Shown here piece by piece: positions 6,839-54,373 of a DNA stretch of 64,000 bases (positions within the stretch are counted from its first letter, which is position 1; every line of letters begins with the position of its first letter). This DNA comes from Stegostoma tigrinum (Eukaryota). The translations under genes and the position numbers were made by a program. The notes beneath the pieces are model-generated. The model was not told the DNA's origin and did no database searches. It saw only the letters and a program-made list of their open reading frames with translations. The stretch lies in assembly GCF_030684315.1 (NCBI RefSeq), contig NC_081382.1, positions 33,862,620 through 33,926,619 on the forward strand, written 5' to 3'.

Positions 6839-6901
6839 CTTGAAAACCAACAAGCCAACAGTTCTTGCAACTGAAAGGGAGAAGTTGAAAATACAAGTTG
6901 T

Positions 6902-20910: not shown

Positions 20911-23325
20911 CTAACTACCACCCATTTTTTCTCTTACTTCTAAAGGAAGTGACTCGATAATATGAGGCTCTATCACAAGTCCATTTAACTTCAACATTGA
21001 GCATTGTCCTATTTCCACTGGAAGCTTTTCCATGTAGTTTCCTTGAAGTTCCAGCTGAGATAGTTGGCTGAGCTTTGAGATCTTCCCACTGATGTTCGAG
21101 ATTAAGTTGTTGCTCAGTTTCAGGGTCATGAGCTTGTTACATTTGAAAAGTTGATCTGGTAAAGTTTCTATTTTATTGTATCCCAAATCCAAATTATACA
21201 GGTTTTTGAGATTTCCAACATCATTTGGAAGCACAGAAATATTATTGTTGTGTAAATCCAAGTAACGCAGTTTATCAATTGTGAAAAGGACTTTTGGTAA
21301 AACCTCAATGTGGTTGTTATTTAAGTACAGATACTCAAGCTTCTTAATTAAACTAATAGTTGTGGGAATAGTCTTGATCATATTGAACCAGAATTTCAAA
21401 CAGGATAACTTTTGCAAATATTGTAAATTGGAAACATCCTCAATTTTGGTAAGGTTGTTACCTTTAAGATCTAAGACTTGAAGATTGGTTAAAGCATAAG
21501 TGGCAGTTGGGATTTTATCCAATTCACAGTTGTGAAGTTCAATTTGGTTCAGATTGATCATTTTCTTTAAGATACTCAGACTTGAGAGCTTGGTCTTATC
21601 ATTATGAATGCACAGCTTCAGCAGGTGTAATGCAACATCGATGAGGGCGGAGGGTATTTTAGAGAGACTTGATTTTAGGTAAAGGACTCTCAGAGAGCGA
21701 AGCCCCTTCATTGGTTCCAGTTCCACAGCTTTTTTTTCAATGGCTAGCTTTCCAGTGAGATACAGCTCCTTGAGGTCAATCAGTTTGTAGATCCAATCAG
21801 GGATTTCATCACGACTCACATATTTAACTCCCACCTTCTTCAGTTGATATTTCAGCCACATCAAAGCAGATGGTGTAACTTCAGTCACACAATGTGAGAG
21901 CCAGATTTCTTCCAAATGCTCCAGCTGAGTTATTTTATTAGATATTTTAACATTACTGCAAAGTTCCAACCTTAACACCTGCAATTCCGTAACTTCATAG
22001 ACAGATTCAGGAATTCCTGATAACATAAAGAGATACAACTCATACTGGTCCTTCTTAGTTTTTGTGACATTTTGTTTCACTTTCTCCACAGTCCAATCAT
22101 TATTTAAACTTAGCAATTTTAGTTTTTGCTCACTCACTTCTGAGAGGAATACTGTGAGACGTTTGCTGTATAGTGTGTCATATTGATCAATCAAATGCAA
22201 CAAGAAAGCAAAGTCATTTGTTACATCAGGAATATCACTGAACTGGCTTTCAACTTTTTTCTCAAAGGAGTACTTTCTCAAAGGATTTCTGAAAACCCAA
22301 CATATTGTGTGGATGCAAAGAATCCAGTAAATAATCACTAAACCTAGATACAGCAGGGCCATTTTACTAATAAAACGAGCAGTACTATAGGTACAATCAA
22401 AAGCCTTATAATAAACCAACTTTAGTGCATTAGGTTCGCATAAATTATTGAAGTCAACAACATAGATATAGGCTGGAAAGTATCCAATGATAATTAAACA
22501 ATGTATTGTTTTGAACAATGTTTGTCCAGCGTATAATTTATAAATCGTGTCTTTCTCTTCAACATGAAGTCTAAATTTCCTTACTTTCTCAAACAAAGCT
22601 TTGGCTTGCTCTGCATCCTTTTTGTCCAAACTTGAGCCAGATACTGAAACATTGGAGTGAATATGTGTGGGAATTTTAGCAAGAGATGAATCTCCTTTAA
22701 CACTGATTTCATCATTGTCATTTTCACTCGTTTTTTGTGATATTTTAGCTTCTTCCTGTTCTCCAGAATCTACACAGACTGCTGTGGATAGTGCTTTGGT
22801 TGTCCAGGGTGACTGAAAACATTTTTGAAGAATGTCAAGAAATTGTTGCAATTTGGAACTTGTTTTAGGATATGTGAAGCAGAAGTTACTGCAGATAATT
22901 AAGACAACCGTATGGAATAAAATCAGATAAGAGAAGAACCGAGTAAACCAGGGGATTTGACTATAGCACATTTGATTGACATACCAGTACTGCCAAATAT
23001 ACAATTTTGTAACCCTTCCAGTTTGGACAGAAATAGATGGATTAGATTTCGTATGCATATCTGAATTGGCACTATTATCAGATGTTTTTGGAGTATCTTG
23101 CAAGGTTGAAACTATCTCATGGTGTGTGTTTTGTTTGGCTTCATCATTCTCACTGTGAGGCAAACAGAAAGTTTCATCCATATAAAGTTGAATACTACAT
23201 CCGAAGATTGCTAAAAGCAACATGATAATCGTCAGATAATCCATGAAAGTGTCCCACCAAGGTTTAAAGACCCGGTAAGCTGGTTGCTTGTCTTCCAAAA
23301 TTGAAACATCACTGAACGAAAACAT
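20911..23325 (-). CDS. LRRC8 family (VRAC subunit) paralogue 2, LRRC8D-like, single coding exon, 804 aa
   Basis: Uninterrupted ORF. The true start is probably MFSFSDVS at 23325, preceded by the acceptor gcatttatttcag|GT ATG. Contains KPWWDTFMDYL, CLP, NQMCY, SPWTTKALS, LDKKDAEQAKALFEKVRKFRLHVEE, SDIPDVTNDFAFLLHLIDQYD and a full C-terminal LRR array. AATAAA at 20774-20779 (minus). Confidence 0.93.
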   Translation of the reverse strand: MFSFSDVSILEDKQPAYRVFKPWWDTFMDYLTIIMLLLAIFGCSIQLYMDETFCLPHSENDEAKQNTHHEIVSTLQDTPKTSDNSANSDMHTKSNPSISVQTGRVTKLYIWQYWYVNQMCYSQIPWFTRFFSYLILFHTVVLIICSNFCFTYPKTSSKLQQFLDILQKCFQSPWTTKALSTAVCVDSGEQEEAKISQKTSENDNDEISVKGDSSLAKIPTHIHSNVSVSGSSLDKKDAEQAKALFEKVRKFRLHVEEKDTIYKLYAGQTLFKTIHCLIIIGYFPAYIYVVDFNNLCEPNALKLVYYKAFDCTYSTARFISKMALLYLGLVIIYWILCIHTICWVFRNPLRKYSFEKKVESQFSDIPDVTNDFAFLLHLIDQYDTLYSKRLTVFLSEVSEQKLKLLSLNNDWTVEKVKQNVTKTKKDQYELYLFMLSGIPESVYEVTELQVLRLELCSNVKISNKITQLEHLEEIWLSHCVTEVTPSALMWLKYQLKKVGVKYVSRDEIPDWIYKLIDLKELYLTGKLAIEKKAVELEPMKGLRSLRVLYLKSSLSKIPSALIDVALHLLKLCIHNDKTKLSSLSILKKMINLNQIELHNCELDKIPTATYALTNLQVLDLKGNNLTKIEDVSNLQYLQKLSCLKFWFNMIKTIPTTISLIKKLEYLYLNNNHIEVLPKVLFTIDKLRYLDLHNNNISVLPNDVGNLKNLYNLDLGYNKIETLPDQLFKCNKLMTLKLSNNLISNISGKISKLSQLSQLELQGNYMEKLPVEIGQCSMLKLNGLVIEPHIIESLPLEVREKMGGS

Positions 23326-24049
23326 ACCTGAAATAAATGCAAAAATTTCAAACAATATTTGAAACGTACATTTTGTAAACATTTAAGTGAAGGGTAGCTT
23401 TGCAATGGTATTACAAGACTGTAGCAATAAAATTATTAGTACAGGTGGGACTAGTTTAGTTTCGGATTATGGTTGGACTGAAGGGTCTGTTTCCCGGCTG
23501 TATGACTCTATGACTACAAAGCAGAGGCCCAGAGATATTAATTAAAATCCTACCACCACTAACCGGGGGAATTTAAATTAAATGTGATTAATTAATAAAT
23601 CTGAAATTAAAGAGCCAATCTTATAAAGAGGATCATGGAATTACTGAAGTTAACACTACCCCAAAGGCAAACTGAGAAACAAGGATTATAATACACCAGT
23701 AAAGTCACTGACCTGCTTTTATAAGTATTATGTCATAACTTAAATGAAATTTCCTGAGTTACTGCGTTATACTGTCTCTTGTTGCCTAACGATTAAAGTC
23801 TGAGATCAAACAAATGAATGTTAGGATTTGAGTTTAAATTGTAACCGAAAACTAAAAACTTAAAAGGTGTCCATCCCTGGTTCAATGAGAACTGTGGGAG
23901 AGAATATCAGGATCAACATTAAGCACAGCTAAAGATTAGATGCCAACCTGTGGAAGCTGCAACGTGGGACTAAGCATGCTAAACTGGAAATGCCCCAGGT
24001 GTGCCTACTAAAAGCAGAACAAATCTAATTCAATCAATTACTGCTCTAT

Positions 24050-25330
24050 CAATCTACTGTCAATCGTCAAAGAAGTGATTGAAGGGTTCATAAACCATAC
24101 TATCAAGTGGCACCTATTTTGCAATAACCTACTCATCAATGTTCAATTTACATACACCCACCTCCAGATGTCTCAGTTGACAAGCTTTATTCCAAACATG
24201 AACAAAATAACTGAATTCCAGAGGTGAGTTGAGAATGATTGCTCTTGGCATCAAAGCAACTTTTGAATGAATGTGATACCTAGAAAGACTGCTAGAAAAT
24301 TGACGGCAGTGGACATCAGGGAAATCTCTACTAGTTGGATGTATATCTAATATGAAAGAAAGTGGTTCTAATCATCGAACATTAATCATTTCAATCCCAG
24401 GACATCTCTGCAGAAGTTCTTCAGGTAGGCCCAAACATCTTCAGCTGTTCGTCAATAATGTTTTCTCTGACCTAAGGTCAAGAATGCTGGTCTTTGTGGA
24501 GAGTTGTGCAATGCTTTGAATGATTCAGAAATCTACAGATTTTGAAGCAGTCCATTAAAGTAGTCTAGCTTTAGTTGACATGTGACAAGTAAAACATTCA
24601 CCACACAAACACCAGGTAATGACTTTCTGCAGAAGAGATAATCTCACCATCTCCTCTTGACATTCGCTGGCATTAACATCGATGAATCCTCTAATATCAA
24701 CATTCCCATCTCCTGTGGTTCCGCACATTGATGACCCCATTGATCTTTAAGGGGCCCTATTCTTACCCTAGTTACTCTTTTGTCCTTAAAGTACCTGTAG
24801 AATCTCTTTGGATTCTCCTTTAACAATCTGCCAAAGCTGTATCATGACCCCTTTCTTGCCCTCCTGATTTCACCTACTGACCTTATAGTCCTCTAAGGAT
24901 TTACATGATTCCAGGTGTCTATATCTGACATATGCCTTCTTCTTTTTCTTGACCAGAGCCTCAATTTCTCTAGCCATCCTGCATTCCTACACCTACCAGC
25001 CTTGCCTCTTACACGAACAGGAACATACTGTCTCTGAATTCATATTTTTAAAGACTGCCCACTTTCCAAACATCCCTCTATCCGTGAACAGTCTCCCCCA
25101 ATCAACATTTGAAAATTCCTGTCTAAATCCATCAACGCTGGCCCTACTCCAATTTAGAACTGCAACTTTTAAATCAGATCTATCCTTTTCCATAACTATT
25201 TTGAAACAAATAGAATTATGATCACTTGGCCCAAAATGCTCCCCCACTAACATTTCAATCACTTGTCCTGCCTTGTTTCCCAAGAGAAGGTTAAATTTTG
25301 CTCCTTCTCGAGTTGGTTCATCCACATACT
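24050..25330. mobile_element. Decayed LINE fragments (+ ~24050-24695; CR1-type ORF2 - ~24700-25330)
   Basis: Minus-strand remnants EPTREGAKFNLLLGN, EHFGPSDHNSI (endonuclease) and KENPKRFYRY. Confidence 0.7.
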
Positions 25331-26999
25331 GAATACACAGAAACTTTATGCAATACTGGAAGAAACTATTGTGGCAGATATTTTTACTTACTCAAGACAG
25401 GCGTTTGAATTTGTCTAAATGTAAAGACTGAAGCTAGTGTTTTCAATAAACATCAGAATTTAATCTAATGGTTTAAAAAAAACAACATATGTTAACTTAA
25501 AATTGCAAAGTGAGTAAGACATGTTCAGACCATTTTGAAACTTGAGTGATATCTACCTCAGAAAAATAGATGATGTTCTAACGAATAGACTTAGAATGTT
25601 TCTATTGATAATGTTGAATTTTGAACTTTTGATTGTTTTCAATATTCCAATTCTTTAAATTCCGTTTGGCTGGCCTAGCTAACAATGCCCTCATCACATG
25701 AATGAATAAAAAAAATCAGACTTTGACATTAATAACAGATGGTTATTGATTGTCATCTGTCCTTTGAACATAGGACTGATCTGAATTTCACATTGCAGAT
25801 ACCCTGGTGTCATTAACCAATTGACATATTTTGTTATTTTGTTAAATGTATAAAATAGTTTAAAATAAGTGGGAAGACTGGTAAGAGAGACCAACATGCA
25901 TTTATTGTTGGATCTGACCTGAAGCAAGAAATATTTAAGGGAACTCTTGTATTTATGAGTACCTATGATCAGATATATTTGCATATTTGGACTACGTCAT
26001 TGTGGAGAATTAATTTGATTAATAGTAAATCATGATCTAAAATGGACAGGCTTGGTGAATGCACTAATATCGTTGTACATCCAGAAAACCAGGAAGCAAT
26101 GCCAGAGGAGCTCTGCTGTTAGGTTAACAAAATACAACAGGCTTTAAAACAGTTTATTTGAAATATCATTTTATGCAGCTAAAAGAAAGTGTGTTGCATA
26201 ATTCAAGGCATGAAGATTTTTCTTTTTTTAAAATACCATAGTGGGTACATATCCCATTTGGTATATTACTAAGCAATAGAGCATACTGCAGATAATTAAA
26301 GCACAGATCAATAGTCATAGCATTGTACAAAGTCCAACTTACACACTATCCTGCCTTGAAATTATATCACCATTTCTTCAAGTCATGAGATCAAAATCCT
26401 GAATACCCTTCTTAACAGCACTGGTTCAGGGGGGCAATTGATCATCATCTTCTCAAGGGCAGCTAGGGATGGACAATAAATGTTGGCCTATCCAGTAACA
26501 CATATATCCTATAAACAAAGAAATTATAATCAATCATACATTTGAACTAGGAACAAGAGTAGGCCATTCAGCCCTATGATCCTGCCTGACTTTCAATAAG
26601 ATGATGGCTGACCTTTCAGTAGCCTCAAATCTCGTGTATTCTTGATAACTTTTCACCTCTTGCTTAAATAGAATCTAACTACTCCTTAAAAATATTTAAG
26701 GACTCTGCTTCCAACATTTTTTAAGGGAAGTTCCAAAAATTCATAACACACGTAAATAAAAGATTTTGCCTTATCTCTGTTTTAAATGGGCAATTTCTGA
26801 TTTTTAAATAGTGACCCCGAATTCTGAACTATCCTTCAAAAGGATAAAAAAACCTCTGCACATCTATCCTGGCAAGACCCTTCAGGATTTTTAATCAGGT
26901 TTCTCTTACTCTTAACTTAGTAAATTACAACTAGCTTTTCCTTAGAGGACAATATCCATTTCGGGTACTAGTCCAGTAAACCTTCGCTAAACTTCATCC

Positions 27000-27958
27000 C
27001 TGATTGGTGCTGGGTTCATTGCTTTTTGTCATTTCTATAAATAATCTGGATGTGAATATAGGAAGAATGGTTAGTAAGTCTGCAGATGACACCAAAATTT
27101 TGTAGTGGACATCAAAGAAGGTTACCTCAGAATATAATGGAACCTCAATCAGATGGGTCAATGGGCTGAGGAGTCACAAATGGAGTTTAATTTTGGTAAA
27201 TGCGAGGTATGGCATTTTGGAAAGGCAAATCAGGGCAGGACTTATAGAGTTAATGGTAGTGTCCTGGGCAGTGTTGCTGAACAAAGAGACCTTGGAGTGC
27301 AGGTTCATAGTTCCTTGCAAGTGGAATACCAGGTAGACATGACAGTGAAGAAGGTATTTCGTACACTTGCCTTTATTGGCCAGTGCATTGAGTATAGGAA
27401 TTAGGATGTCATGTTGCAGCTGTACAGGACATTGGTTAGGCCACTTTTGGAATACTGTGCACAGTTCTGAACTCCCTGTTATAGGGAAGCTGTTGTAAAA
27501 CTTGAAAGGGTCCAGAAAAAATTTACAAGGATGTTGCCAGGGTTGGAGAGTTTGAGCTATCGGGAGAGGTTGAATAGCCTGGGCTATTTTGTCTGGAGCA
27601 TCGGAGGCTGAAGGTTGACCTTATATAGGTTTATAAAATTATGAGGGGCATGGATAGTGTGAATAGCCAAGGTCTTTTCCCAGGGTGGGGGAGCCCAAAT
27701 CTAGAGGAATAGTTTTAGGGTGAGAAGGGAAAGATTTAAAAGGCAGCTAAGAGGCAATATTTTCATTCAGAGGGTAGTACATGTATGAAATGAGCTACCA
27801 GAGGAAGTGATCGAAGCTGGTACAATCACAACATTTAATAGGAAGGGTTTAGCGGAAATGGGTCAAATGGGACTAGATTAATTTAAGATATCTGGTCAGC
27901 ATGGACGAGTTGGACTGAAGGGTCTGTTTCCATGCTGTACTGCTCAATGACTCTATGA
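27000..27958 (+). mobile_element. CR1-type LINE 3' fragment
   Basis: SADDTK RT motif remnant, WAEESQMEFNFGKCEVWHFG, RDLGVQVH and a CR1 3' UTR with a ctatga tail. Confidence 0.85.
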
Positions 27959-28736
27959 CAATGAATTTGCATCCTTCCTTGAATAAGGTGACCAATACTG
28001 TGCTGATTGCATCAGCCACAGTCTCACCAGCCAATACAGCGTGGAGCTGGAGGAACACAGCAGGTCAGGCAGCATCACAGCAGCAGGAAAGTCGACGTTT
28101 CAGGTCAGGACACTTCATTATGATTCTTTCTTATTCTCCCTGCTAAAATGGACAATTTCATGTTTTCTCACATTATATTCTATTTGTACAATCAGCCTCT
28201 AAGCCAAACATCCATCACTTTTTGGAAGTACCTGAGATCCAGGGAAATCATCACCTGATTGACAACTCTGACTCACTGATCTTTTCTGTCAATTTTATTG
28301 ATACAAGTTTAAAAGGATTCAAAATGCTTGAAGTTTCTGCTATTATACATTAATTATTTTGGATGATGGACGCATTTATTAGCATTTGATCTAAACAGTT
28401 TATTTTAAGAAGGTGGAAAATAATAAATAATTAACTTCTTCTACAGTTTTACTTACTAAAACTGCAATCGCTGTAGGTAAATGTTTCTCTATAGTGGCTG
28501 AATGAGCTTGGAAATACCAACATCTGGGGTAGGGTTCTTGAAGGGCCAAAATGGGTGGTTGGCAGGTATAACTCAGTATCGGAGTGGGGAGACATTGCTG
28601 GGATGTGGGGGGCTTGAGGAGGAGCTTTTGATGTTATTTTTCAAATGTTCTCCTCGTGCAGACTGTGGCTCACAATGTAGAATGGATTGTGAGCTGTGAG
28701 TTTAATAAAAAGCTGGACTGTCTCCATACACATTTG

Positions 28737-29097
28737 GGGTGGCACGGTGGCTCAGTGCCAGGGACCCGGGTTCTGGGGCGACTGTCTGTGTGGAGTTTGC
28801 ACATTCTTCCTGTGTCTGCGTGGGTTTCCTCCAGGTACTCTGGTTTCCTCTCACGGTCCAAAGATGTGCTGGTTAAGTGGATTGGCCGTACTTAATTGCC
28901 CATAGTGTTCAGGGTGTGTAGATGAGGAGGTTTGTAGGGGATGGGTCTGGGTGGGATGCTTCAAGTGTAGGTGTGGAATTGTTGGGCTGAAGGGCCTGTT
29001 TCCACACTTCAGGGATTCTGTGAATTAATGAGTGTGGACTTGTTGGGCCGAAGGGCCTGTTTCCACACTGTAGGGATTCTATGATTCTATGATTCTA
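28737..29097 (+). mobile_element. tRNA-derived HE1/V-SINE-like SINE with a duplicated 3' tail
   Basis: A-box-like tggctcagtg, V-domain-like gtgtggagtttgcacattct...tgggtttcctcc, and a LINE-like tail present twice (~28972-29022 and ~29032-29097) ending in (ATTCTATG)n. Confidence 0.75.
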
Positions 29098-30709: not shown

Positions 30710-33199
30710 TTATGCAAGGTGCTCCAATTCAGCATGTGACATCTTGTTGGGGGTTAATAGCCTGATGTCACTCATGGGTTCAGGATTAGTACTAATGCCT
30801 ATTTTGATTTGCATGGGAAGTGCCTCAAGCAAGTATTCATCTATTATCAGACCACTCTGTTTCAGCTTGCTACACTGGGTTATCTCAACTGGGAGTTCGT
30901 CTAGGGAATTTCCTTTCAGTTCCAGTCTGGTCAGTTGGGAACACTGCTGAATCTTCCCACTGAGGGACGACAGCAGGTTATTGTTCAGCTTCAGGGTCTT
31001 GAGCTTTTTGCACTGGAAGAGCTCATCTGGCAAGGTTTCCAATCGATTGGAGCTTAAGTCGAGGTATTTGAGGTTTTTGAGATACTTGATGGACGAAGGA
31101 ATGGCAACCAGGCGATTATTACTCATGTCTAAATGTTGCAACTTTGGAATAGTGAACATACTGTTGGGCAACGTCGCAATCTGATTGTTGGACGCGTTGA
31201 AGCGTTCGAGGCTACTGATGAAATTGAAGGAATCCGGAATGGCTTTGATTTTGTTGAAGCTGAGGTTGAGGGCTGACAACTTGCGCAGGCGTTGCAGGCT
31301 TTCGATGTCCTCGATTACGGTGAGCTCGTTGCCCTGGAGGTTCAGCTCCTGCAGGTTGGAGAGGCCGAAGACGCCGTGCGGGATGGCCTCCAGGTCACAG
31401 TTCTGCAGGTCCAGGCGGGCCAGGTTGAACATGCTGCCCAAATTGTGCAGCATCTCCAGCTTGTTCTTGTTGTTGAGGATGCACAGCTCGATCAAGTGCG
31501 GCGCCACGTACAGCACGTTGAACGGCACCTTCATGAGGTTGCTGTTGATATGGAAGGTTTTCAGGTAGCGCAGCTCCTTCAGGAATTCCAGCTCCAACCT
31601 CTTGTCGCCGGCGTTGACATTGCCGATCAGGGAGAGGGCTCGGAGGCGGGTCAGTTTGCCGATCCACTCGGGCACCTCCTCGTGGTCGGAGAAGGTAACG
31701 GACAGCAGGTGGAGCTGGTTGCCGAGGAAGAACAGGGCGGCGGGTTTGATGGTGACGATGCAGTTGACAATGCGGAGCTCTTCCAGGTGAACGAGCTGGG
31801 TCACCTTGGTGCTGATGTTGATGTCGGTGCAGAGCTCCATCTTGAGGGCCTGGATCTCGGTGACATCGTAGACCGCCTCGGGGATGCCGGTGAGCATGAA
31901 GAGGTGCAGTTCCACCTTGCTGCCCCGGATGAGCTGTTGCCTGACCTTCTCCGCCGTCCAGTCGCTGTTCAGGCTCAGCAGCTTGAGCTTCTTCTCACTG
32001 GCCTCAGACAGGAAGGTGGAGAAGTGTTTACAATACAGGGGGTCATACTGGTCAATGAGGTGCAGCAGGAAAGCAAAGTCATTCTTCACGTTGGGAATGT
32101 CACTGAACTGACTCTCGCGCTTCTCGAAGGAGTACTGTTTGAGGGGTGTACGGATGATCCAGAATAGAGTGCGGACACACAGTAAGACATAGATGGCCAC
32201 CAGGCATAGGTACAGTAGCAACAGCCTCCGGAGTAGGAAGGCAATGCTGAATGTACAGATAAAGACTCCATATCCGGTGACCATCTCGGTGCCAGGCCGG
32301 CAGATGATGTCAAACGATACTGCCTCCACAAAGATGGCGAAATAGCACAGGATGATCATACACTGCAGAGTTTTCAACAGCAGCTGGCCCACGTACAGCT
32401 TGTAGATGGTGTCCTCTTGTTCCACATGCAGCCGGAATTTCTTCACCTTCTCGAACAGAGCCTTGGCCCGTTCCCAGTCCTTCTTGTCCAGCAGCTCGTT
32501 CTGCCTCTGGATGACTGGGATGTTGCGGGTGGTGCCACGGCTCGAGTCCCTGATGCCCGGCGACACTGGCTTGAAGCTCGCCGTCATGCTCTTGCGCTTC
32601 TCCTGTGTCTTGACATTGACATTGCTGCTGTGTTCGGTCACAGCGAGGGACAGTACGTCAGAGGTCCATGGGGACTCGAAACACTTCTCCAGGATGAAGA
32701 TCAGATGCTCCATTTTGGAGCTGGTCTTCGGAAACCGAAACCAGAAGTTGCTGCAAATCATCAAGGCCACTGTGTGCACCAAAATGAAGTAGGAGAAATA
32801 TTTGGGAAACCAGGGTACTGCGTGAAAGTAGCATGCCCGGTTGACATAACGGTACTGCTGAATGTCCAGGTTGGTTTTGCCCTCGGTGACTGCATAGACA
32901 GCATCTCTATGTGAGAGCCGAGCGAAATCGCGAATGCCTGTAACATTATAGGCAGCAAAAGCTTGCTCTTCCATGGTTGAGTTGTCTTCGGGATATGACT
33001 GGCTACTGTTGTCTGAGGAAGTATCCTCGATTGGCAGACAAACCGTTTTGTCCTTGTATATCTGCGTGGTGCCTCCAAACACAGCAATCATCAACATGAT
33101 TATGGCCAGATAATCCATGAAAGTGTCCCACCAGGGCTTGAAGATTCGGAAAGATGGAGGGGCTTTGCTCACTGAAGAAAGTTCCTCGAAGGAAAACAT
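30710..33199 (-). CDS. LRRC8 family (VRAC subunit) paralogue 1, LRRC8D-like, single coding exon, 829 aa
   Basis: Uninterrupted ORF. The true start is probably MFSFEELS at 33199, preceded by the acceptor tcttcttctgtgtgttcag|GT ATG. Contains KPWWDTFMDYL, KTNLDIQQY, KCFESPWT, AKALFEKVKKFRLHVE, NDFAFLLHLIDQYDPLY, VAPHL and a full LRR array. AATAAA at 30499-30509 (minus). Confidence 0.95.
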   Translation of the reverse strand: MFSFEELSSVSKAPPSFRIFKPWWDTFMDYLAIIMLMIAVFGGTTQIYKDKTVCLPIEDTSSDNSSQSYPEDNSTMEEQAFAAYNVTGIRDFARLSHRDAVYAVTEGKTNLDIQQYRYVNRACYFHAVPWFPKYFSYFILVHTVALMICSNFWFRFPKTSSKMEHLIFILEKCFESPWTSDVLSLAVTEHSSNVNVKTQEKRKSMTASFKPVSPGIRDSSRGTTRNIPVIQRQNELLDKKDWERAKALFEKVKKFRLHVEQEDTIYKLYVGQLLLKTLQCMIILCYFAIFVEAVSFDIICRPGTEMVTGYGVFICTFSIAFLLRRLLLLYLCLVAIYVLLCVRTLFWIIRTPLKQYSFEKRESQFSDIPNVKNDFAFLLHLIDQYDPLYCKHFSTFLSEASEKKLKLLSLNSDWTAEKVRQQLIRGSKVELHLFMLTGIPEAVYDVTEIQALKMELCTDINISTKVTQLVHLEELRIVNCIVTIKPAALFFLGNQLHLLSVTFSDHEEVPEWIGKLTRLRALSLIGNVNAGDKRLELEFLKELRYLKTFHINSNLMKVPFNVLYVAPHLIELCILNNKNKLEMLHNLGSMFNLARLDLQNCDLEAIPHGVFGLSNLQELNLQGNELTVIEDIESLQRLRKLSALNLSFNKIKAIPDSFNFISSLERFNASNNQIATLPNSMFTIPKLQHLDMSNNRLVAIPSSIKYLKNLKYLDLSSNRLETLPDELFQCKKLKTLKLNNNLLSSLSGKIQQCSQLTRLELKGNSLDELPVEITQCSKLKQSGLIIDEYLLEALPMQIKIGISTNPEPMSDIRLLTPNKMSHAELEHLA

Positions 33200-34024
33200 A
33201 CCTGAACACACAGAAGAAGAGGCACATTATTCTTAGGATTCATTCTTGAATTTGGGTAGGGAAATTGTCAAACACAGAATGGAATGGACCAAATCTGTCA
33301 CCAACCACAAGGAAATGGAGAAATGAGAACCAGGTTGCCCCAGCTGTGGTGATACTCTTCCCTGTTCTGAGTCCTAAAGTTAAGTAACACTGCAAAACCT
33401 CAGCACAAAAATAATCAAGACTGGTATGCCAGTACCGAAGGAGTGCTGCACTGTTGGAGATGCTACGTTTTGGATGTGGCATTAAACAAAGGTCCCATCT
33501 GCTAACTCCAGCAAATGCAAAAGATTCAAAGGCATTATTTCAAAGAAGAGCAAATAAATTCTTCACTGTGTCCACACCCATTTTTATCCCTAATCTAACA
33601 GCACAAAAACAGATTATCTGGTTACTCTCACATTTTGTTTGTGGTATACAAATTGGCTGTTGCATTGTCTAAATTACAAGTGACTTCAGTTCAAAAGTTC
33701 TTCATTGGCTGTAAAACATTTTGAGATGTCCCATGGTTATGAAAGGTTATACAAATGCAAGTCTTCTTTTCAATACCTAAAATATGATGCTTTTTACAAA
33801 TTATAAAGTTTGCTTGGCTAGTATTTTTCTTAAAAGCTAATACAGCTATCAATAACAATTTATAATTATGTTTATGTAGTGGGTCTTAAAATAGAAACAA
33901 AAACTAGGGTGGTCCAAAGAAGGGTTACCAAACAAAAGCCAACACTGAACCTGCTAGGTAAAGGTAAAGTCACCATTGTTTTAGCAGACCATAGCGTGGC
34001 TCTCTCTCTCATTACAGAGAGAGA

Positions 34025-43339: not shown

Positions 43340-43702
43340 CTGTAAAGACTGGGATGTTTTTCAGTGGAGTATAGAAGTTTGAGAAGTGACCTTACTGAGG
43401 TTTATAAAATCATGAGGGGCATAGATAATATGAATGACAAGGATCATTTTCCTCGGGTAGGGGATTTCAATGTGAGGAGGCTTATACTTAAGATGAGAGA
43501 AGAAAGATTTAATAAGGATGACAGGCAACTAGCGTGTGGAATGACTGCCAGACAAAATAGTGGATGCAGGTAAAGTTGCAACATTTAAAAGACTTTTAGA
43601 TAAGGGCAGGCAAGTAGGACTAACTTAGCTTGGGAACACGCTAAGTGTGAACTAGTTAGACTGAAGCAGTTGTTTCCAAGCTGTATGATTCTATGACTCT
43701 AT
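43340..43702 (+). mobile_element. CR1-type LINE 3' fragment
   Basis: LRSDLTEVYKIMRGID remnant and a ctatga tail. Confidence 0.7.
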
Positions 43703-46492
43703 AATTCACTAGTACTTTTCCCAAGTGAACTAGAAAACAGTTATGAATGTGTTAGCGTTTCTACACTTCCCAGAACATTTTTAAAATAAATGACAACTTG
43801 GGAAGTGTTCCAGAGAATGAGTGAACAATTGTAAAACCAAATGCCAGTAAGGAGGAGAAGAAATGGAAACAAAGTTGATCAGAAATATGTCAATTGAAAG
43901 CCAATCTATATATACATACTGGTATATTCATAACTCATTGATCACTAACCATATATCCCACAACATTTGCTTTTGTTGCCAAATCTTTCCTGCCAACGGT
44001 AGTAAAACTCTGACTGTGGGTAGCCTTCTAACACTGCAGCCCACTGGCTTTTTCAAAAATGAAAACCTAGACAGTGATGTAGTAGAGACATTTGTTTACA
44101 GAAGACAGGCCAGGCATCAGCTAAATCCAATCTTTGCCCATACATACCCACTTTCCAACCGAAAGCACTAGATAATAACCAGGTTCAGAAGCATCGGTTG
44201 ACATTTTCCCTCCCTAGCCCATGGAAAATCAAGTGCAGTGTGTATGCTGCCTGTTGTCCTGATATCAGCTAACTCAGCACGAATAGTGAATCAAAACTAG
44301 TATCCAATTAAAGAAAAAAACTAGATTCTTAAAATTTTAGTTTCTTTAAATAGCACTTCAATTTCTATCTAACTAACTCCATGGTGTTCCCACTGGCTTT
44401 GCAATGAATATTGTACAACGCAAGATGAATCAGTTAAAATAATATTGGGTTTGAAAACATGTACATCTTAGAAAAAAAAAGATCACTTATGGCAGGAGAG
44501 AAAATTATGCCTCATTTGTATGATGTTGCCATGTTAGAATGGAAAAAAGGATTTCAATTAATGACCTGGTTAATCAAAAATGCTAACATCAACAAGAATT
44601 ATTATACTTGAGTAAAGATGTTCGAAAGAAGAGACATAACAGACGTGAAAGGTGAGCTGTTTCTCTCTGCACAGATGCTGACAGAACTGCTGAGTTTTTC
44701 GAGTATTCATTGTTGGTTTAAGAACTATTCTATTTTTCATTAGTTCATGTCTCACAGCACCAGTGAAACAAATCAGCCCAAACAATTTGGTGACAGAAGT
44801 ATGGAATTCGATCCTTTGTCATGCATTGCATGTTCCCTCCTATTTAACTGTCACCACTCTTCTAATAATTCAGCTGCCTGAAGTCTTCACACATTAAAAT
44901 AGCCTCAAGCAGTGGTTGATATAACAAGATTAAAATTATAAATTACTGAGTAACTCTATTAGTCTGTCATACTGTGTTGGGGGTCTCCTTGATCACACAG
45001 CTGGCATTAACTATGGATTTACTCAAGTGTATGTCTCATTTTATTTATCTGCTTTCTAATCTTACATTTGTTTCTCCACACACTTTCCCATTGTTAAAAA
45101 AAATTCCAGCCTATTTTCTTGTCGATCCCAAAATTTTTTTAAAAATGCAGCAAGTCAAACACCAGGAAAGAAAAAAAAATACGGTTCTGGCTTAGTTATT
45201 TACACTGCTGGCATCTGAGTCAGGGACTGTGGATTCAGGTCCCATGATGGATGCAAGCACATTGTCTGATGAATAATATTTAAGTTGACAAAAATAAATC
45301 ATAGCATATTTTAAAAAACATGGAAATTTCCTTTATTTAGCCAACATCTTCCCTCCCACCAAATTAAATGTCAGAAGATACGGCTGTGACAATGTGCACT
45401 AATATGCATCATTAACAGGTAAACCGGAGGGACAGTCAAATGATGGTGGAGTGATTGTAGAAAAAAAAGTTACATTTACACGTAAAGATTTATACCGAAT
45501 TTTAGATAATCCTACGAAGTCAACAGGAGGAAAAAGAAAGAATGGTATATTATGGTCAATTAATAATCTTGGGCCCTCCCATGAAATTGAAAGTTCCACT
45601 CATTAACTGGACATTCATGCTGTGCATAATTTGGCTCCTGCATTCACTTCACTTTAATTGAATTACTGTTCCAACGATTATAAAGCTTGTTTAGACATTT
45701 TAAAGAGATGCTGAGACATCAGATAAATTCTCTCTTCTTTGTGGAGTGAATTCTCCATAGTTGACTATGTATTTAGAATCTTAACATTCTTGGTTATCTG
45801 TAGGTCAATGACATTTTTCCAAATATTATTGACTGCAGAGATGGGTGGGACGAGCAGGGAAGTCAACTTATTCACTTAGCAGGCAAAATGACTATGTGTG
45901 GAGGCAAGCAACATCAGAAACAAAGACATTAAAAGTCAGAGCAGCAGTAATATGCAGTAAAATACATCACTAAGGTAAATGGCGAGTCTACAGATGCTAG
46001 AAGGAGAAAAGATTACAGTGAAAATCACACTATGTAATGATTTATGTATAACTTTATACAACTTTATAATTTACACACAGATTTACATAGGTACTTATAA
46101 TACATATTTGTAATATATCTATTCTGAAATTGCATATTTTGTACATTCTTGATGCTTATTTATTCATTTTCAATGGCAATGGACAGGTAACTAACAAACA
46201 TATTTGTAAGGTTAGTGTGGCATAGTCGGAATTCATCTTTTAATTCTTCATCATGTTAAATTTAAGAACATATAGCAGATCCACGCTTTCATTTTAAAAA
46301 TGTATAAACTCAATGTAAAGTTTGTTAATACTTTGATTTGGGAGCCAAAAAGGTCGGGAAGTCATTTTAGCATTAATTAGTAATCCTTACTGATGTTTTC
46401 TTTTAAAAAAAAAAGACACAATATATAAATATGGTTTACTATTTGCTTTTGTGCAAACAAATGGGGATGAAGAAAGAAGTGGGTGCGGGGGG

Positions 46493-46493
46493 A

Positions 46494-46528
<35 letters not shown>

Positions 46529-46556
46529 GACTGAGAGCGAGAGAGAGCAAGAGAGA
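46493..46556. repeat. (GA)n microsatellite, interrupted
   Basis: A pure GA run at ~46495-46520 followed by imperfect GA units. Confidence 0.9.
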
Positions 46557-49500
46557 AATCAATGCTAAAGCAAATGCAAGAGACCAATTAAATCCCTTTC
46601 CAATTGTATTTGAATAGCTGTCCAATTAAAACACACAAATAATTACAAATCAACAAAATATGAATAATTTTGTAATTTATTCCTAGCAATTCAACTGCTC
46701 TAGGTAAAAATGTCAGATTTTACTGTTCTGACAAGAGGTAAATTCCAAATGGATGGGTTTATTATTAAGATATCTTATGACATTTTGATTGAGATGCTGA
46801 CCATTGAAAAACACTGCAGCTTTAAAATAGGGCTGTTAAGACATGAAATTAACAACATTTCTGGTTACATTTAAAGAGAAATAAAAGTAGGCTTTCAACA
46901 TGAAAATTGTAAATAAAGCCTATTTCACGGCATTGAGTAATACTTTCTACTGCTTTGAAAAAATGTGTAAGCACACTAGTATAATTACAGTCACTTACAC
47001 ATGTAAGAATTCAACAATCAAAATAACAAACCTGAGAAAAGTGTTGCTACTAGTTTGAGGTTTTAATGACCCCTGAGGACACAGAACTGAAGTCTTAGCA
47101 TCAATGACAATTCAGAAATAATTAAATCTTATACAGCATCCAACGTGGGTACAAGGCAGGCCAATCTCATTAAAAGCACACTGCAATAATTATTTCTTTC
47201 TTGAGTGAGTAAATAGGATAATTGCAACTTTTTTTAGTCATTTGAGCATTAACAAAAATAGAAACTTAGCATTACAGTTTCTTAAGAAAACATTAAAACA
47301 GAGCCAACAATGGAAATCTACCTTTCCTTTACCCTGATTGAGGGATCGTTGCATCAGTATCAAACTGCTGCATTCAGGCATATCTAGATAAATCAAAGTT
47401 CCCTCTAGTTTGCCCCAGCCTTGTTAGAACAGTATGACTTCAATGGTGTGAATTTTTTTTCAACCCATGCCTATCAATGTGACATTGACAATTAGTATGC
47501 AATTAAATGTACGTAATTTTGTGCAGATAGCCCAAGTCTACTGGAAACTGTCTGAAGGGCAAGCAGATGAAAGACACTTTGGTCTGACCATTTCTGGTTG
47601 GATTTGAACCTAGGTACCTTAGATGACAGACATGCTGATCCAGGGCCACCACTATTCGAAATGCCATTTCTTCCAAAAATTATGCCACACAGTACTCTTA
47701 TAATCCACATATTATCCATGTACCCGCCAGCATAGAACTCACATAATCACAAGGAATTGGAAATAAGAAAATTTGGTGAATGTTTGCAAAAGGAGCAGAA
47801 AATACTGGAAAATCACGAATTGCTGAACAGTATTTCAGGGACGTTTATATGGATCCCACCCAAACCGCTCTCACTTTACTGACTGATTATGAATTTTTTG
47901 AAGAAAAATTATTCCTTTCCCTACATGCCTTTGATATCCCTACTTGCTTCTCAATACTACTTCTGCCCTTTTCTCACTCTGATCTTCATCTTTAATTGAT
48001 CTTTTTCAAATTGCCTTTTTCTAAAAAAAAAGTCATTTGATTGTTCAGATTCTGGCGGGATGAGGGCAAAGTGTAGAGAAGTGCAAGGATGACAGATAAT
48101 GAGCAGGAAAGCCAACAAAGCACTCACAGAACAGATGTCTGTTCTGTAAGTAAAAGTATGGCAGCAAAACCAGGACTCTAAAACACAGAACCTGATTTAG
48201 AAGAGAAATGGCACAGAAGAAAAACATTATAGGATTAAAAGTTGGAATGGTAAGAAATCAGATAGTAAGGGCAATTCTCATGGGCAGTAGCCAGAGTGCA
48301 GCATGTAGGTTCAATACATTGCTGTTACAAAAGTTAACCACTGGAGCATATACAGAACATAAAAGATACAAAACACTATGGATGAGGGAAATATTTTGCA
48401 CAGAAAAATATTTAAGTTCCTCAAGTGAACAGTTCAATTTCAAATTTTTACTGTTCAAGTGCTGGGGTACAATGATTTCTGGATATTATCGCCAAATACC
48501 CTTTGTTCCTCTGTGAACCTTGACAATCACTGCAGGCTGGATGTCTGTAGAAGTATCCCAACTAAGCCTGATTCCATTCGTAACTGTGGTTCATACAAAT
48601 ACATTTCCAGCAGGGGTCACTGAAGAGTAAACAAGAGTAGGAACCCTCAGCTCAATTTCACCACTTCTGCCCTTTCAACAGTGCCTTCTGCACTGCAATC
48701 CCACTTCCCACCCCCTACCCATTTCCTTACATAAGCTGTTGAAATCAGTGTTTAGCACAAACTAGGTACTGAACCTGTATCACATTACCCAAAGTTAAAT
48801 GGCTTATGATTTACAATAAAAGTTAGAAACTAACTGGTCTCTTCCCTCAAATGAGTAAAGGAGCATTTCTCATGTTTATACCTTATCTTAAGTATTGTAA
48901 TTTGAAGTATCTTTGAAGCACAGTTATGTGTCATGGAAAATAGGCTTTATTTCCTCAGTATTTTTAAATGAAGGGAAGTGCCCCAACAACTTAATTAAAT
49001 TGAACCTTTCTTTAAAAAAAAAACTAACCTTTTGCTATTTAACAGTTTTTATAAAAAAAACCTGACCAAACAGTCCCTAAAGTTGAATACTCACTCCTCT
49101 CAGAATATTGCATATATCTGCAAAAGAGCGGTCATGAAAACAGCTCCTCTCCTCAAATCTTTTGCCAGCAAAACTCAAGAGTAGTGTTTTGTTCTACTTG
49201 GAAGGGATTGATGGCAGGGATGTGAAATTGAGAATTCAGTTCAGTCACCATGCTTCAAAAAAAATCAGCTTAATGAGAAATTAGTATTTTATTTGGCCTA
49301 AGATGATCAAAAAGGGACTTCTTTTTCTTAAAAAAGTATCATGCAAAGATTGTACTGCCTCTTTGGGGCAGCTACAGTACCGGTCCCTCATACTGTACCA
49401 GCTTAATTAATAAATAACAAGGCATTGGCAAATTTGGTCTGTTGACAGGCCATGGCTATGAACATATTAGCTTTTTGTGATTCATTAAAGCAGAAATACT

Positions 49501-49743
49501 AATTGTGTTAAGATATTTAACCCAGCTACTTCTTTAAATGATTCTTTTAGTTACTGGCAGGCATTCCTTTTTGTCTATTGCTCTGCTCCACTTGGACAGC
49601 ACCAGTTGCCGGAACAGAAAACAAGATATATTTCCTGTTTATACCCAATAGGAGATCTGCTCAATCATTCCAGTACAGCAGGCCTCAAAATCTGCTGAAA
49701 ACTTGGCAACATATGTATTTCCTCCTTACAACATTGATAAAAT

Positions 49744-50019
49744 TCAGGCTTGTTCCTTGTCTGCTCGCCACAGTTGCTCCTTAACCTCAGATGGGAGTGT
49801 ATTGAAGAGATCATCTTCCACCACGAGGCCACTTCGTTTCAGCAGTCGGCATTCTCCCAGTTCTACAGGGAGACACTCCAATCTGTTTCCTCGAAGCTCC
49901 AGTTGCGTTAAACTCGTCAGTTCACCGACCCGTGATGGCAGTGATATCAGGCAGTTATTCCCTAGGTTTAGAGTTCGGAGCTTACGACATTGAAACAGTT
50001 CAGGTGGCAGAGTTTCAAT
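49744..50019 (-). CDS. LRRC8A: LRRC8A last coding exon (91 aa plus stop)
   Basis: Acceptor ...cataccatgcag|ATT GAA. Translates IETLPPELFQCRKLR...EVKEQLWRADKEQA*, the characteristic LRRC8A C-terminus. Confidence 0.97.
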   Translation of the reverse strand: METLPPELFQCRKLRTLNLGNNCLISLPSRVGELTSLTQLELRGNRLECLPVELGECRLLKRSGLVVEDDLFNTLPSEVKEQLWRADKEQA

Positions 50020-50979
50020 CTGCATGGTATGACAGGGAAAATAAGAGATAAAGAACAATAATGTTAAATATTTTAACTGCTGCACATGCTGGCTGAAGTA
50101 GCATTTATCAAGAAAATGCTTGTTATTTCAGAGAATACCAAAGACAATTTTGGGAACTCTCCAAGTTTTAATTTATAGTATAAACATTTGAATTTTGGAG
50201 GAAATAATTTTCACACTGGCTACAGAAGACATACAATTAAACATGCAGTATCCTCCAGCAAATTATTTGCAAATTTATGCCTATATTTGGCTCTTGGGCT
50301 TTATGCATCCACAGAATACCAACTAAAATTAAAGTAATATTTTTACGATATCCACTTTTATAGCATACATCCCCAGTTGTCCAACATAACTTTTGAATAG
50401 TATGATTTAAACTGAATGGCTTGGGTGATTTATTTAGAAAAATGTAAACTTCAGAGAATTTTTCTTTGGAAGTAATTATTTCTAATGCTTATTTCATTTT
50501 AGGCAGCCGGGTGTCATTCCATCTTTCTGCTGGTGAGAGCGCGGAGCTGGGTGAGCATTCATCTGTTTCCTAGAACTGTTTTGATGAGCAGGCTTAAGAT
50601 TATGTACTGAAAATTAAAAATAAACAGAAACAAAAACAAAATCAACTTCACCTATAGCATGTGCAAGAACATGTTACAGCCATGTTTAAAAAGGCTTTCA
50701 TCATTGTCATACTAAGGGCAAATCTCAACTGCTGTAATTACAAGAAAAATGCTGCCCAGAGTAATCTAACAGCCTTATTTTTAAGGTTCAAGGAACCACA
50801 GCACTAAGTAGTTGAGGGGAAGCCTAAAAGGCCTCAACATCAACCACTTAAAGAAAACACAAATAATTCAGTTCTTACTTGGAAACTAAAAGGTGAATAA
50901 ATTAAAAAAGGGAAATTGTAAGATTAAAAAAAACATACTGTAAACCATATAAGCATTTATATTAGATATCAAAACCAGA

Positions 50980-51160
50980 ACTCTCCTCCTATCCTCTTTT
51001 CTCTCCATCTTCGGTCCGCCTCCCCCTCACTCCCTATTTATTCCAGAACCCTCACCCCATCCCCCTCTCTGATGAAGGGTCTAGGCCCGAAACGTCAGCT
51101 TTTGTGCTCCTGAGATGCTGCTGGGCCTGCTGTGTTCATCCAGCCTCACATTTCATTATC
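50980..51160 (+). mobile_element. Short PLE 3'-end fragment in the last LRRC8A intron, with an intact hammerhead-like motif at 51069-51096
   Basis: Matches the PLE termini at 16430-16570 and (reverse) 55840-56000. Motif CTGATGAAGGGTCTAGGCCCGAAACGTC. Confidence 0.85.
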
Positions 51161-52228
51161 AAGGCTGAAGAGATTTGATCCCAGTTAAGTTTCCTTCAAA
51201 ATTTGTTACCTTCATGGTAGTGGAGGCAAGGTCTACTTAGCAGACATTTTTACAGGGTTAGCAAACAATAATATTAGTGATATATGTACATAAGATATTT
51301 AGATTGTTCTATGATAATGATTAGAAGACAGCATTCACGATAGGCAGAACAACAACTTTAATTTATGTACTGCCTTTAATATAAAAAGTGAGCCAAGACT
51401 CCTCACAAAGACAATAAGAGGCAAATTATATAATGAGTTATGCCGAGAGAGACAAGGGTAGCTGGAAGAATGCTTGGTCAAAGAGGCAGAATTTAAGGAG
51501 TCACTTAAATAAAGAAAGAGCAGAAAGGGGAGAGATTTACCAAAAGAATTCCAGAGTTTGAGGCCTACTGAAGGCACAGCCTGCAATGATTAAGTGACTA
51601 AAATCAGGGACTCCAAAAAGGCAGGAATTATAGGAGAACACAGATATTGCAGAGGTTTTTTTGGGCAGGACGGTATTTCAGAGACCAGCATGTGGAAGGA
51701 TTGGAAAAGAAGGATAAGAATTTCTAAAAATCAAGACATTGCTCGATTAAGAGCTAACAAAGAACACAGAGTGGCATGCTGAATGGGACTTGGATAGAGT
51801 CATGACATGGGCAGCAGAGTTTTGGATGACTCCAACTTTTTGAACAGTAGAACATGGGAGACCAGCAGGTCTGTATTTTAATAGTCAAGTCTACAGCGAC
51901 GAAAGGCATAAATTTTGGTTTCAGCTGATGCACGGGGATAGGAGTGCGACAGAATAATGTAACAAAAATGGAAGGTGGATATCTTGGTGGATGGCACTGA
52001 TGTCAGGTAGGAAGTTCATCTCAGGGTCAAATGTGACACCAGATTGCAAACAGACTGGATTAGTCTCATACTACCGCCAAACAGTGGGATGGAGTTAGCA
52101 GCTTGGAAACAGAGTAAGGTGCAGTGACTTCAGATTTTCCAACATTTAATTGGGAAGAGGGCAAAAGAGATGAAAATCTAGTCTAATAGTGAACATATAT
52201 TTATTAAGACTTGAATGTGCACACTCAC

Positions 52229-54373
52229 CCGGTTTGCAGTGACTGCAAAATACTGCAGATTCTGAAGGAACCCGATGTCCTGTGGTATAGATGTCAGGTT
52301 ATTATGACTCAAATCTAAGTACCGCAACTTGCGACAATAGAACAGCTGAGCAGGAATCTTTTCAATTTTGTTCCGGTTCAGGTAGAGCCTTTCCATGTTG
52401 GTCAAAGTGCCAACCTGAATGGGGATATAGGCAATATGGTTATACCACAGCTTAAGGCAGACTAGGCGCCGTAGGTGCTGGAAACTGATAATTTCCTCGA
52501 TTGTCTTCAAGTTGTTGTCTTTGAGATCGATTTCCTGTAAGTTATGGAGACTGAAGATGGAGTGTGGGATTCGTTCCAGATCACAACGGATTAACTCCAA
52601 TTCTGTCAGATTAACCATCTTCTTCAGGCTATTGAGGACCATAAGCTTGGTGCCCTCATTGTTGATAGACAATTTCTGCAGATGGACTCCAACATCTGTG
52701 ACAACCTGTGGCAACTTTGTTAGGTTGCTCTTCAACCTCAAAACTTTGAGGCATTTGAGTTCCCGTAAGCCATCAATCACGATGTAGCGATTATTCTCTG
52801 CACTCAGGTTCCCAGTTAGGTGAAGCTCTTCGAGGTTCTTCAGGCTGTAAATCCACAGAGGAATCTCTTTGATGTCTGTAAACTTGATATGTAGTGACTT
52901 CAGGTGCTCTCGTAAGAAGGCAAGAGCTGGTGCCTCAATCTTTGCTGGCGTGTGGTACAACCAGAGTTCTTTGAGGTTAGTAAGTTGGGCAATAATTGGA
53001 GGAATGGTGACATCCAAGATCATCTCCAATTTGAGCACTTCCAGTTCAGTCAGGTCAAAGATGGTGTCTGGGATTCCACTCAGCATGAAGAGGTGGAGTT
53101 CCAGTTTGTCCTGAGAGTTTTTCATGATCCTCTGGCGGAGTTTTTCTAGGGTCCATTCATTATTCAGATTGAGCTGTCGTAATTTGTTCTCACTGACTTC
53201 AGACAGAAAGACAGCAAAACGTTTGGAGTACAATGGATCATACTGATCAATGAGATGCAACATAAAAGCAAAATCATTCTTGACATCAGGAATATCACTG
53301 TAGCTACTCTCCTCTCGAATTGACTCGAATGAATACTTTTTCAAAGAAAGGCGTACCATCCACCAGAGTGTGTACATGCAAATAAGTCCATAGACAATCA
53401 CTAAACTAATGTAAAAGGATGCAAGGATCTTGAACAGTGTAGCTAATGGATGAGCACATTGATACACATTGTATCCTGTGAGGTTCTGAATGTTCACTAT
53501 ACAGGACACATCAAATTTTATATCATCAACATAATAAAGTGAGTAGCTAATAATAAGAGCAAATTTGATTACTTTGATAATAGTCTGTCTCATATAGAGC
53601 TGGTAAACTATATCCCCTTCCTCTACATGGGTGCGGAATTTCTTTACTTTTTCAAACAGAGCTTTAGCTTGCTCTCCCTCCTTCTTATCCAATACACCTG
53701 TTTCCGAGTGATCGACTATTCCCTGCTCAATGCGGGATTTTGTTCTTTGCAGCATGGGTACACTGGCCTCCACATCCTCACTCACTGTAGAGGATTTCTT
53801 TGCCATTGAACCATTCATTTTAGCAAAAGACTGCTTTGGGTCAGTTTCTTCTGCCACAGTTTCAGATAGTGCCCTTGTTGTCCATGGTGAGTCAAAACAT
53901 TTCAGAAGGATCGATACAAAGTGTTCCAGCTTTGAGCTGGTTCGAGGATATTTGAACCAGAAATTGCTACATACTAAGAACACCAGCGTGTGTAGAAGTA
54001 CAAGGTAGGGAAAATATTTTGCAAACCAATGAAGTTTATTCTCATAGCATACTGCATCTACGTAGTTGTACTGGTGGCGGTCCAAGTCATACTGGATACC
54101 TGTGGGTTCACTGGAAAACGGGGGAATGACTGAAGATGACGGGAGTGTTGCATTTGGGTAATCAAAGGGTTCAAGACATGTATCATTTGCAACCCACTTG
54201 CAAGGTAAGCAGATCATTTTGTCTTGCGTGACCTGCAGTGTGCCACCAAATACTGCTATCATTAGCATTACAATGGAGATGTAGTCCGTAAACACGTCCC
54301 ACCATGGCTTCAAAATGCGGTATGCAGGCTGAGTGTCAGCAAAATATCGTAATTCCGTTACTGGAATCATCAT
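52229..54373 (-). CDS. LRRC8A: LRRC8A (SWELL1) main coding exon, 715 codons
   Basis: MIPVTELRYFADTQPAYRILKPWWDVFTDY, CLPCKWV and YDLDRHQYNYVDAVCYEN are near-identical to mammalian LRRC8A. Acceptor ttttcag|GTGC ATG at 54378, donor AAC CGG|gtgagt at 52228. Spliced product about 805-806 aa. Confidence 0.98.

Follow-up and report, generated by a model that had tools for sequence, protein, structure and literature searches.

Two LRRC8D-type genes beside LRRC8A in the shark Stegostoma tigrinum: a probable first-round duplicate of LRRC8D kept by cartilaginous fishes

Results

Three LRRC8 genes lie next to PHYHD1

We analyzed a stretch of 64,000 nucleotides from the shark Stegostoma tigrinum (contig NC_081382.1, positions 33,862,620 to 33,926,619; hereafter the window). 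It carries LRRC8A, which belongs to the family of volume-regulated anion channels (VRAC), together with two further LRRC8 genes that we call X1 and X2. A first-pass annotation of the window had reported three co-oriented, full-length LRRC8 open reading frames beside PHYHD1. All three are found where they had been placed, and all are on the minus strand, but LRRC8A is not a single open reading frame: it is made of two coding exons, which encode 805 amino acids in total. The order of transcription is LRRC8A, X2, X1, PHYHD1 (Table 1). In human, we take LRRC8A to precede PHYHD1 immediately. The LRRC8A of this shark shares 90% identity with P0151, a representative of the LRRC8A type, and the two group together with a support of 99/99. 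X, Y and D2 are labels coined in this analysis, and B, C, E, D1 and D2 were assigned by grouping with named database proteins.

Table 1. Coding features of the window (positions in the 64,000-nucleotide stretch)
Feature	Positions	Strand	Remarks
LRRC8A, large coding exon	54370..52229 (feature 52229..54373)	-	ATG ATG at 54373/54370; GT donor after 52229
LRRC8A, last coding exon	49744..50019	-	CAG acceptor; ends ...DKEQA stop
X2, D-type LRRC8 gene	30710..33199	-	829 amino acids; one coding exon; acceptor 2 nucleotides before ATG
X1, D-type LRRC8 gene	20911..23325	-	804 amino acids; one coding exon; acceptor 2 nucleotides before ATG
PHYHD1, coding exon, N-terminal part	7592..7750	-	match to human PHYHD1, E 2.4e-12
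PHYHD1, next coding exon	1..75	-	extends past the window edge; more exons in L032 and L033

A tblastn search across the window gave no LRRC8 remnant besides LRRC8A, X2 and X1, and a short-motif scan for KYAT1 in the 30 kb upstream of the window returned nothing convincing. The single coding exon that had been annotated for each of the extra genes was confirmed, and both start in the context CAG/GT ATG, with the ATG 2 nucleotides past the splice acceptor. An in-frame ATG at 23382, 5' of the X1 acceptor, is probably intronic. The GC content at third codon positions is 0.73 in X2, 0.38 in X1 and 0.49 in LRRC8A, and CpG-rich windows fall within the X2 coding region. Because of the high GC of X2, we regard the long antisense open reading frames at 31277-32914 as by-products. 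Near position 31940 (residues ~420-425), X2 reads IRGS--KVEL, two residues fewer than all its orthologues, including that of Chiloscyllium (IRGSKEQLEL).

X1 and X2 encode complete D-type LRRC8 proteins

Both proteins have the layout of the LRRC8 family, namely a pannexin-like domain with four transmembrane segments followed by C-terminal leucine-rich repeats (LRRs), in about 800 amino acids. The pannexin-like domain PF12534 is matched over its full length in both (profile positions 1-346 of 346; E 1e-106 and 6e-112). When solved structures were searched with X2, LRRC8D came out on top with 811 bits, against 719 for LRRC8A and 708 for LRRC8C. X1 and X2 are 48% identical to each other; each shares 45-48% with the canonical D protein of the same genome (D1, see below) and 43-45% with LRRC8A. 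The D-type motifs quoted in the first-pass annotation are present far beyond chance, with small differences such as VALHL in place of VAPHL in X1.

The likeness to LRRC8D (VRAC subunit; PDB 6M04, 9DX7 and 9T5M) comprises a single coding exon, an MF start and the FMDYL, CLP, KT and FAFLLH-type motifs, as well as membership of a common clade. In contrast to LRRC8D, the first extracellular loop (EL1) of X1 and X2 is shorter and their second intracellular loop is short by 1-2 residues. With LRRC8A, which they adjoin, they share the domain layout, but they lack its Arg103, its 3' intron and the C57 of its second disulfide (C57-C65). The four extracellular cysteines C54, C113, C295 and C310 are present in every X1 and X2 row covering them, and the helix residues flanking the intracellular loops are conserved. 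As for the columns typical of other classes, both proteins keep 0 of 5 for A/B and 2 of 17 for C/E; for Y, X1 keeps 4 of 27 and X2 1 of 27.

In the AlphaFold model of X1, the LRR solenoid mostly has a predicted local distance difference test (pLDDT) value of 80-95, and the pore domain mostly stays below 50. Pore positions were set by alignment to LRRC8A numbering and not from this model. A complex prediction for the pore domains of LRRC8A and X1, run without alignments, scored 0.02.

The X genes are found in cartilaginous fishes

Database searches returned 11 clusters for X1 (61-92% identity) and 10 for X2 (59-93%), all of them chondrichthyan by name or, in two cases, by cluster members; identity to the proteins of Hemiscyllium and Chiloscyllium is 92-93%, which marks this animal as one of the carpet sharks. 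X1 and X2 were both found in 11 other species, on equally long contigs and, in 3 of them, under consecutive accessions. Both are also present in the little skate. When a profile built from 23 X sequences was searched, 866 matches resulted, and the best 120 of them comprised 21 X proteins (1239-1479 bits), two double-copy models and 97 proteins at or below 1078 bits. P0011 and P0013 were considered as X members and rejected: each reaches a high X score only by way of two LRRC8 copies, and their best matches are D1 and C/E. A pore-domain filter retained 217 of 334 fetched proteins, and X was the best match of only those 21 X proteins. Finally, the best 150 of 57,339 matches in a search of 50% clusters contained bony-vertebrate proteins, divergent ones, that resemble D2 or Y, but none that resembles X.

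The X genes are likely to be absent from bony vertebrates, as judged among the matches listed. The first-pass annotation had proposed a loss in mammals, which agrees with the lack of X among these matches; however, all bony vertebrates, and not mammals alone, seem to have lost X.

From chimaera through rays and sharks, the reading frames of X1 and X2 are intact. Shark-chimaera identity amounts to 64-67% outside two variable loops and 14-30% inside, and such a concentration of change in the loops is typical of proteins under selection. Gene models already exist in RefSeq: the "LRRC8D-like" entries XP_007900957/8 (Callorhinchus) and XP_055516023/30 (Leucoraja) are orthologues of X2 and X1. This automatic label is common to X1, X2, D1 and D2. 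Logan contigs encode skate X1 and X2, and these could stem from RNA or from genomic DNA alike; P0009 starts with an intron-acceptor-like sequence and looks genomic. In the searchable part of the skate paper's supplement, only chromatin-contact rows occur, for Lrrc8a-1 and Lrrc8d-3. A search of sequencing runs with X1 gave at least 5 runs, none of them holding RNA, which speaks neither for nor against expression.

Three contigs carry ten LRRC8 genes

Searched with the LRRC8A N-terminus, this genome yielded 17 matches (32 candidates scored), which correspond to ten LRRC8 genes and one extra first exon. The genes are ordered B, C, D1, Y1 on contig C10; E, D2 on contig C45, with Y2 9 Mb off; and A, X2, X1 on contig C37. 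The separate B-C-D cluster expected elsewhere in the genome thus exists on C10, and X1 and X2 are therefore not a relocated LRRC8D. The canonical gene of this cluster, D1, is 78% identical to bat LRRC8D and fills the role of LRRC8D proper, whereas X1 and X2 neither nest with mammalian D nor sit behind LRRC8C. Introns divide the family into classes. A and B are interrupted near codon 714, C, E and Y after codon 46, and D1, D2, X1 and X2 have neither intron. The acceptor 2 nucleotides before the ATG is common to D1, D2, X1 and X2, and the Y genes have it too.

The Y class comprises two genes with a first exon of 46 codons, L024/L025 (G000:C10:88.87-88.89 Mb) and L029/L030 (G000:C45:10.38-10.41 Mb). 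Together with proteins of newt, painted frog and lamprey, some of which are labelled LRRC8C-like or LRRC8A-like, they make up a clade supported at 100/100. Y1 has Arg at the filter position, as A and B do. Judged from its sequence, Y1 could be a candidate second A-like subunit, and the Y class is arguably about as interesting as X. The first coding exon of Y2 recurs, with an identical translation, ~600 kb off on the opposite strand (L031, G000:C45:9,784,595-9,784,741). No second exon was found for this copy, which is either a segmental duplicate or an assembly duplicate.

D2 (L028, G000:C45:1.38-1.39 Mb) lies directly behind LRRC8E. Its relatives come from lungfish, gar, bowfin, perch, a poison frog and, as a fragment, a lizard. 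That of the poison frog is on a contig as long as that of its LRRC8E, with accessions two apart, and a rattlesnake gene model fuses a C/E-type copy with a D2-like piece. LRRC8-like proteins also occur in a sea anemone (P0254, Exaiptasia) and in metagenomic contigs (P0192, P0202, P0205 and P0269), one model being fused to a caspase-like domain, whereas a review terms LRRC8 a vertebrate innovation in the part accessible.

X branches as the sister group of D1 and D2

The main tree (LG+G4) was built from 40 proteins hand-picked from about 330 to span the classes, with an outgroup of four invertebrate-type proteins including that of Exaiptasia. X1 and X2 each form a clade supported at 100/100, with one chimaera member in each. 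Support is 100/100 for X1+X2, 100/99 for D1+D2 and 99/97 for X as sister to (D1,D2). Quick mixture-model trees with 56 and 26 rows have the same topology, and the D-type genes are monophyletic in one of them with a value of 100 in the Shimodaira-Hasegawa-like approximate likelihood-ratio test (SH-aLRT). A grouping of X with D1 is rejected by approximately unbiased (AU) tests (p 0.0093), and so are groupings with A (1e-51), with D2 (0.0010), with Y (0.0012) and with C/E (0.00035). X thus stands outside LRRC8A and outside canonical LRRC8D, as the first-pass annotation had anticipated. The tandem duplication that separated X1 from X2 is older than the chimaera-shark split; a tandem pair had been correctly recognized, but it did not arise in this lineage as had been supposed. 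In the same tree, a lamprey protein falls within Y and hagfish proteins group with A/B. Teleosts have extra D genes, lrrc8da and lrrc8db (PMC6994961); Db-named and other teleost D proteins nest inside D1 and not with X.

The locus belongs to a known set of paralogous regions

HR1-domain (PKN-type) genes are present on C10, C37 and C45, and Y1 and Y2 have AKAP95-family genes at a distance of ~40 kb and 14 kb, respectively; such shark matches are called PKN1/2/3, ZNF326 and AKAP8 by position. According to the hagfish genome paper (PMC10972751), chordate linkage group M (CLGM) has the copies 1-alpha, 1-beta and 2-alpha and no 2-beta. In the accessible part of its supplement, PHYHD1 and PKN3 are assigned to alpha2, GTF2B, PKN2 and ZNF326 to alpha1, and PKN1 and AKAP8 to beta1; one Xenopus dolk-like row is marked beta1, and no LRRC8 rows are among those listed. 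The order ((alpha1,beta1),alpha2) of this map predicts ((D1,D2),X), which is the topology that our tree found independently. The X genes lie by PHYHD1, hence on alpha2, and have paralogous neighbors on the alpha1 and beta1 contigs, as expected for an ohnologue of the first round of whole-genome duplication (1R).

We thus consider it highly probable that X1 and X2 represent the 1R ohnologue of LRRC8D on the LRRC8A/PHYHD1 paralogon, outside the D1+D2 clade. The D ohnologue suggested earlier for this paralogon is upheld by the tree and by the paralogon map and is sharpened to 1R. D2 is likely to be the ohnologue of LRRC8D from the second round (2R, beta1). On the other hand, the idea that A followed by a D-like gene mirrors C followed by D had to be abandoned, since A pairs with B and a C/E-type gene is missing at the locus. 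We propose instead an ancestral cluster A/B-C/E-D-Y, of which X would be the 1R counterpart of D. The survivors of this cluster would be B-C-D1-Y1 on alpha1, E-D2...Y2 on beta1 and A-X2-X1 on alpha2.

Residues of the predicted pore

Tyr48 is present in all 11 X1 rows and all 10 X2 rows covering the site, whereas none of 28 further rows in the table has it; a C-like protein from an anchovy matches the Tyr48 motif as well. Position 103 of X is never Arg. It is Ile in both genes of this shark, Tyr, Asn, Val or Ile across X1, and Phe, Tyr or His in the X2 of chimaera, sawshark, ray and sevengill. The aromatic filter residue of LRRC8D is matched in the chimaera, by Tyr in X1 and by Phe in X2, whereas X1 and X2 of this shark differ from LRRC8D by Ile at the filter and Tyr at 48, and X1 also by Trp104. 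The filter loop of X1, TKLYIWQY, has an aromatic residue at 102 and Trp104 (12 of 12 X1 rows), and Glu6 is replaced by Asp or Asn in X1.

Broken retrotransposon pieces were seen at 1371-2813, 6831-7412, 15934-16404, 55882-56648 and 58500-60500 of the window. Their translations, judged by eye, include gypsy-like pol, CR1-type long interspersed nuclear element (LINE) and Penelope-like endonuclease sequences, which are ordinary shark repeats.

Discussion

Altogether, there is good support for X1 and X2 as an ancient, undescribed lineage within a known family. In open full text we found no account of extra chondrichthyan LRRC8 subunits; PMC6994961, PMC6028502, PMC6679542 and PMC7269912, in the parts accessible, treat five LRRC8 paralogues plus teleost duplicates, and the subscription article of Abascal and Zardoya (2012), which is outside this scope, may show some. 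The complete interpretation that we favor on balance is that X1 and X2 are intact D-type genes, probably of 1R origin and duplicated before the chimaera-shark split, whose products would partner LRRC8A in swelling-activated channels with a pore predicted to be wider and less anion-selective.

LRRC8A requires a partner subunit (PMC6363415). Its R103 forms the narrowest constriction of the pore and sets charge selectivity; this residue is L in C and E and F in D (PMC6451053). F143 of LRRC8D widens the filter, presumably for osmolytes, and LRRC8D makes A heteromers more permeable to taurine, inositol and cisplatin (PMC13586245). Pore lipids are touched by V40, T44 and T48, and mutating these residues raises basal activity (PMC12182595). 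From the comparison of sequences, we infer that the X subunits are probably partners of LRRC8A in swelling-activated channels. They would join LRRC8A hexamers, and each X, like C, D and E, would swap one Arg103 of the filter ring for a residue without charge. An Arg ring diluted in this manner would be less selective for charge and would favor organic cations or neutral osmolytes. At T48, where pore lipids make contact, the invariant Tyr would alter lipid-mediated gating, and the aromatic residue 102 and Trp104 of X1 would give a filter unlike that of any mammalian subunit. To name particular osmolytes for which X would be selective is a guess.

The VRAC of skate hepatocytes could bear on this proposal. 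Its permeability ratios PNa/PCl and PCs/PCl are ~0.2 and its Pcholine/PCl is 0.55, against the usual 0.02-0.04 (PMC6363415, quoting Jackson 1996). One could imagine a toolkit of ten subunits, derived from a four-gene ancestral cluster, in which X, an ancient class lost elsewhere, would with its Tyr48 and rebuilt filter let LRRC8A channels pass neutral and cationic osmolytes such as trimethylamine N-oxide (TMAO), betaine and choline. This would explain the cation permeability of the skate and would be linked to osmoconformation by urea and TMAO; we present this scenario as a doubtful one.

One would also wonder whether genes of the same origin could fulfill another role. X1 and/or X2 could be inhibitory, intracellular or self-assembling, and not partners that conduct together with LRRC8A in the plasma membrane. 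The bulky, pore-facing Tyr48 of all members, as well as Trp104, the aromatic residue 102 and the loss of Glu6 in X1, could obstruct the pore or change the interfaces between subunits. Moreover, X1 and X2 evolve much faster than D1, and homomers of LRRC8C and D are known as solved structures (PMC13586245). However, all mammalian non-A subunits are described as acting with LRRC8A (PMC6451053, PMC6363415), and the X proteins retain the disulfide cysteines and the helix residues near the intracellular loops; we thus judge such a role unlikely.

Several observations weigh against the interpretation that we favor, with regard to both origin and function. The stem of X is long (0.37-0.41 changes per site), one quick mixture tree came with a long-branch warning, and the AU tests are subject to the same long-branch pull of the model. 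Shark-chimaera identity is 60-62% for X versus 87% for D1, so that X evolves faster, and of 21 D-diagnostic columns X1 keeps 6 and X2 11. HR1 exon identities are 42-43 for every contig pair and do not order the contigs. No cyclostome D-type sequence was retrieved in protein searches, and the 1R date therefore rests on the topology and the published map. As to the pore, position 48 is variable in other paralogues (A, S, M, L). A D-like taurine permeability, on which the first-pass annotation had based its possible set of osmolyte-channel subunits, does not follow, because the D-defining Phe143 is Ile in X1 and X2. Lastly, the cation leak of the skate might just as well stem from D2, from Y, from other subunits or from a different channel.

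Concerning the origin, X and D could have been split by a tandem duplication before 1R, X being a fifth member of the cluster that was later lost from alpha1 and beta1, and D being lost from alpha2. This history yields the identical tree ((D1,D2),X), and growth of the cluster by tandem duplication is a proposal of Abascal and Zardoya (quoted in PMC12182595). It demands at least two more losses than a 1R origin, and D and X are side by side in no genome examined, C10 for one running B-C-D1-Y1; we find it quite improbable. There is similarly little chance that, in the stem of cartilaginous fishes, a copy of D1 or D2 moved beside LRRC8A and changed rapidly, its deep position being a long-branch artefact. 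The long stem branch, the coding region without introns and the chondrichthyan-only range, which would dispense with any loss in bony vertebrates, are in line with such a move. Against it, the AU tests reject X+D1 and X+D2, the mixture model concurs, the conserved acceptor 2 nucleotides before the ATG speaks against a retrocopy, and the copy would need to have inserted downstream of A and co-oriented with it, at the very site for which a D gene is predicted by the cluster model. Finally, although the X genes physically adjoin LRRC8A, it is hardly conceivable that they are tandem duplicates of it, an origin refuted, in agreement with the first-pass annotation, by the 43-45% identity, the 0 of 5 A/B columns, the absence of the A/B intron and the AU p of 1e-51, or that they are decaying unexpressed genes, given frames open in chimaera, rays and sharks and changes mostly in loops.

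What would a 1R origin of X1 and X2 mean for the LRRC8 family? The surprise is limited, since ohnologues retained by sharks are familiar and the gene models were already in RefSeq. VRAC is usually treated as a five-gene family (A-E), and the locus points to four ancestral vertebrate classes. Sharks keep ten LRRC8 genes, two of them belonging to a lineage of which bony vertebrates gave no member among the matches listed. As natural subunits with fixed changes at 102-104 and at the lipid-gate position 48, X1 and X2 could serve as probes of substrate choice and gating, and they are named candidates for the cation-permeable VRAC of skate hepatocytes.

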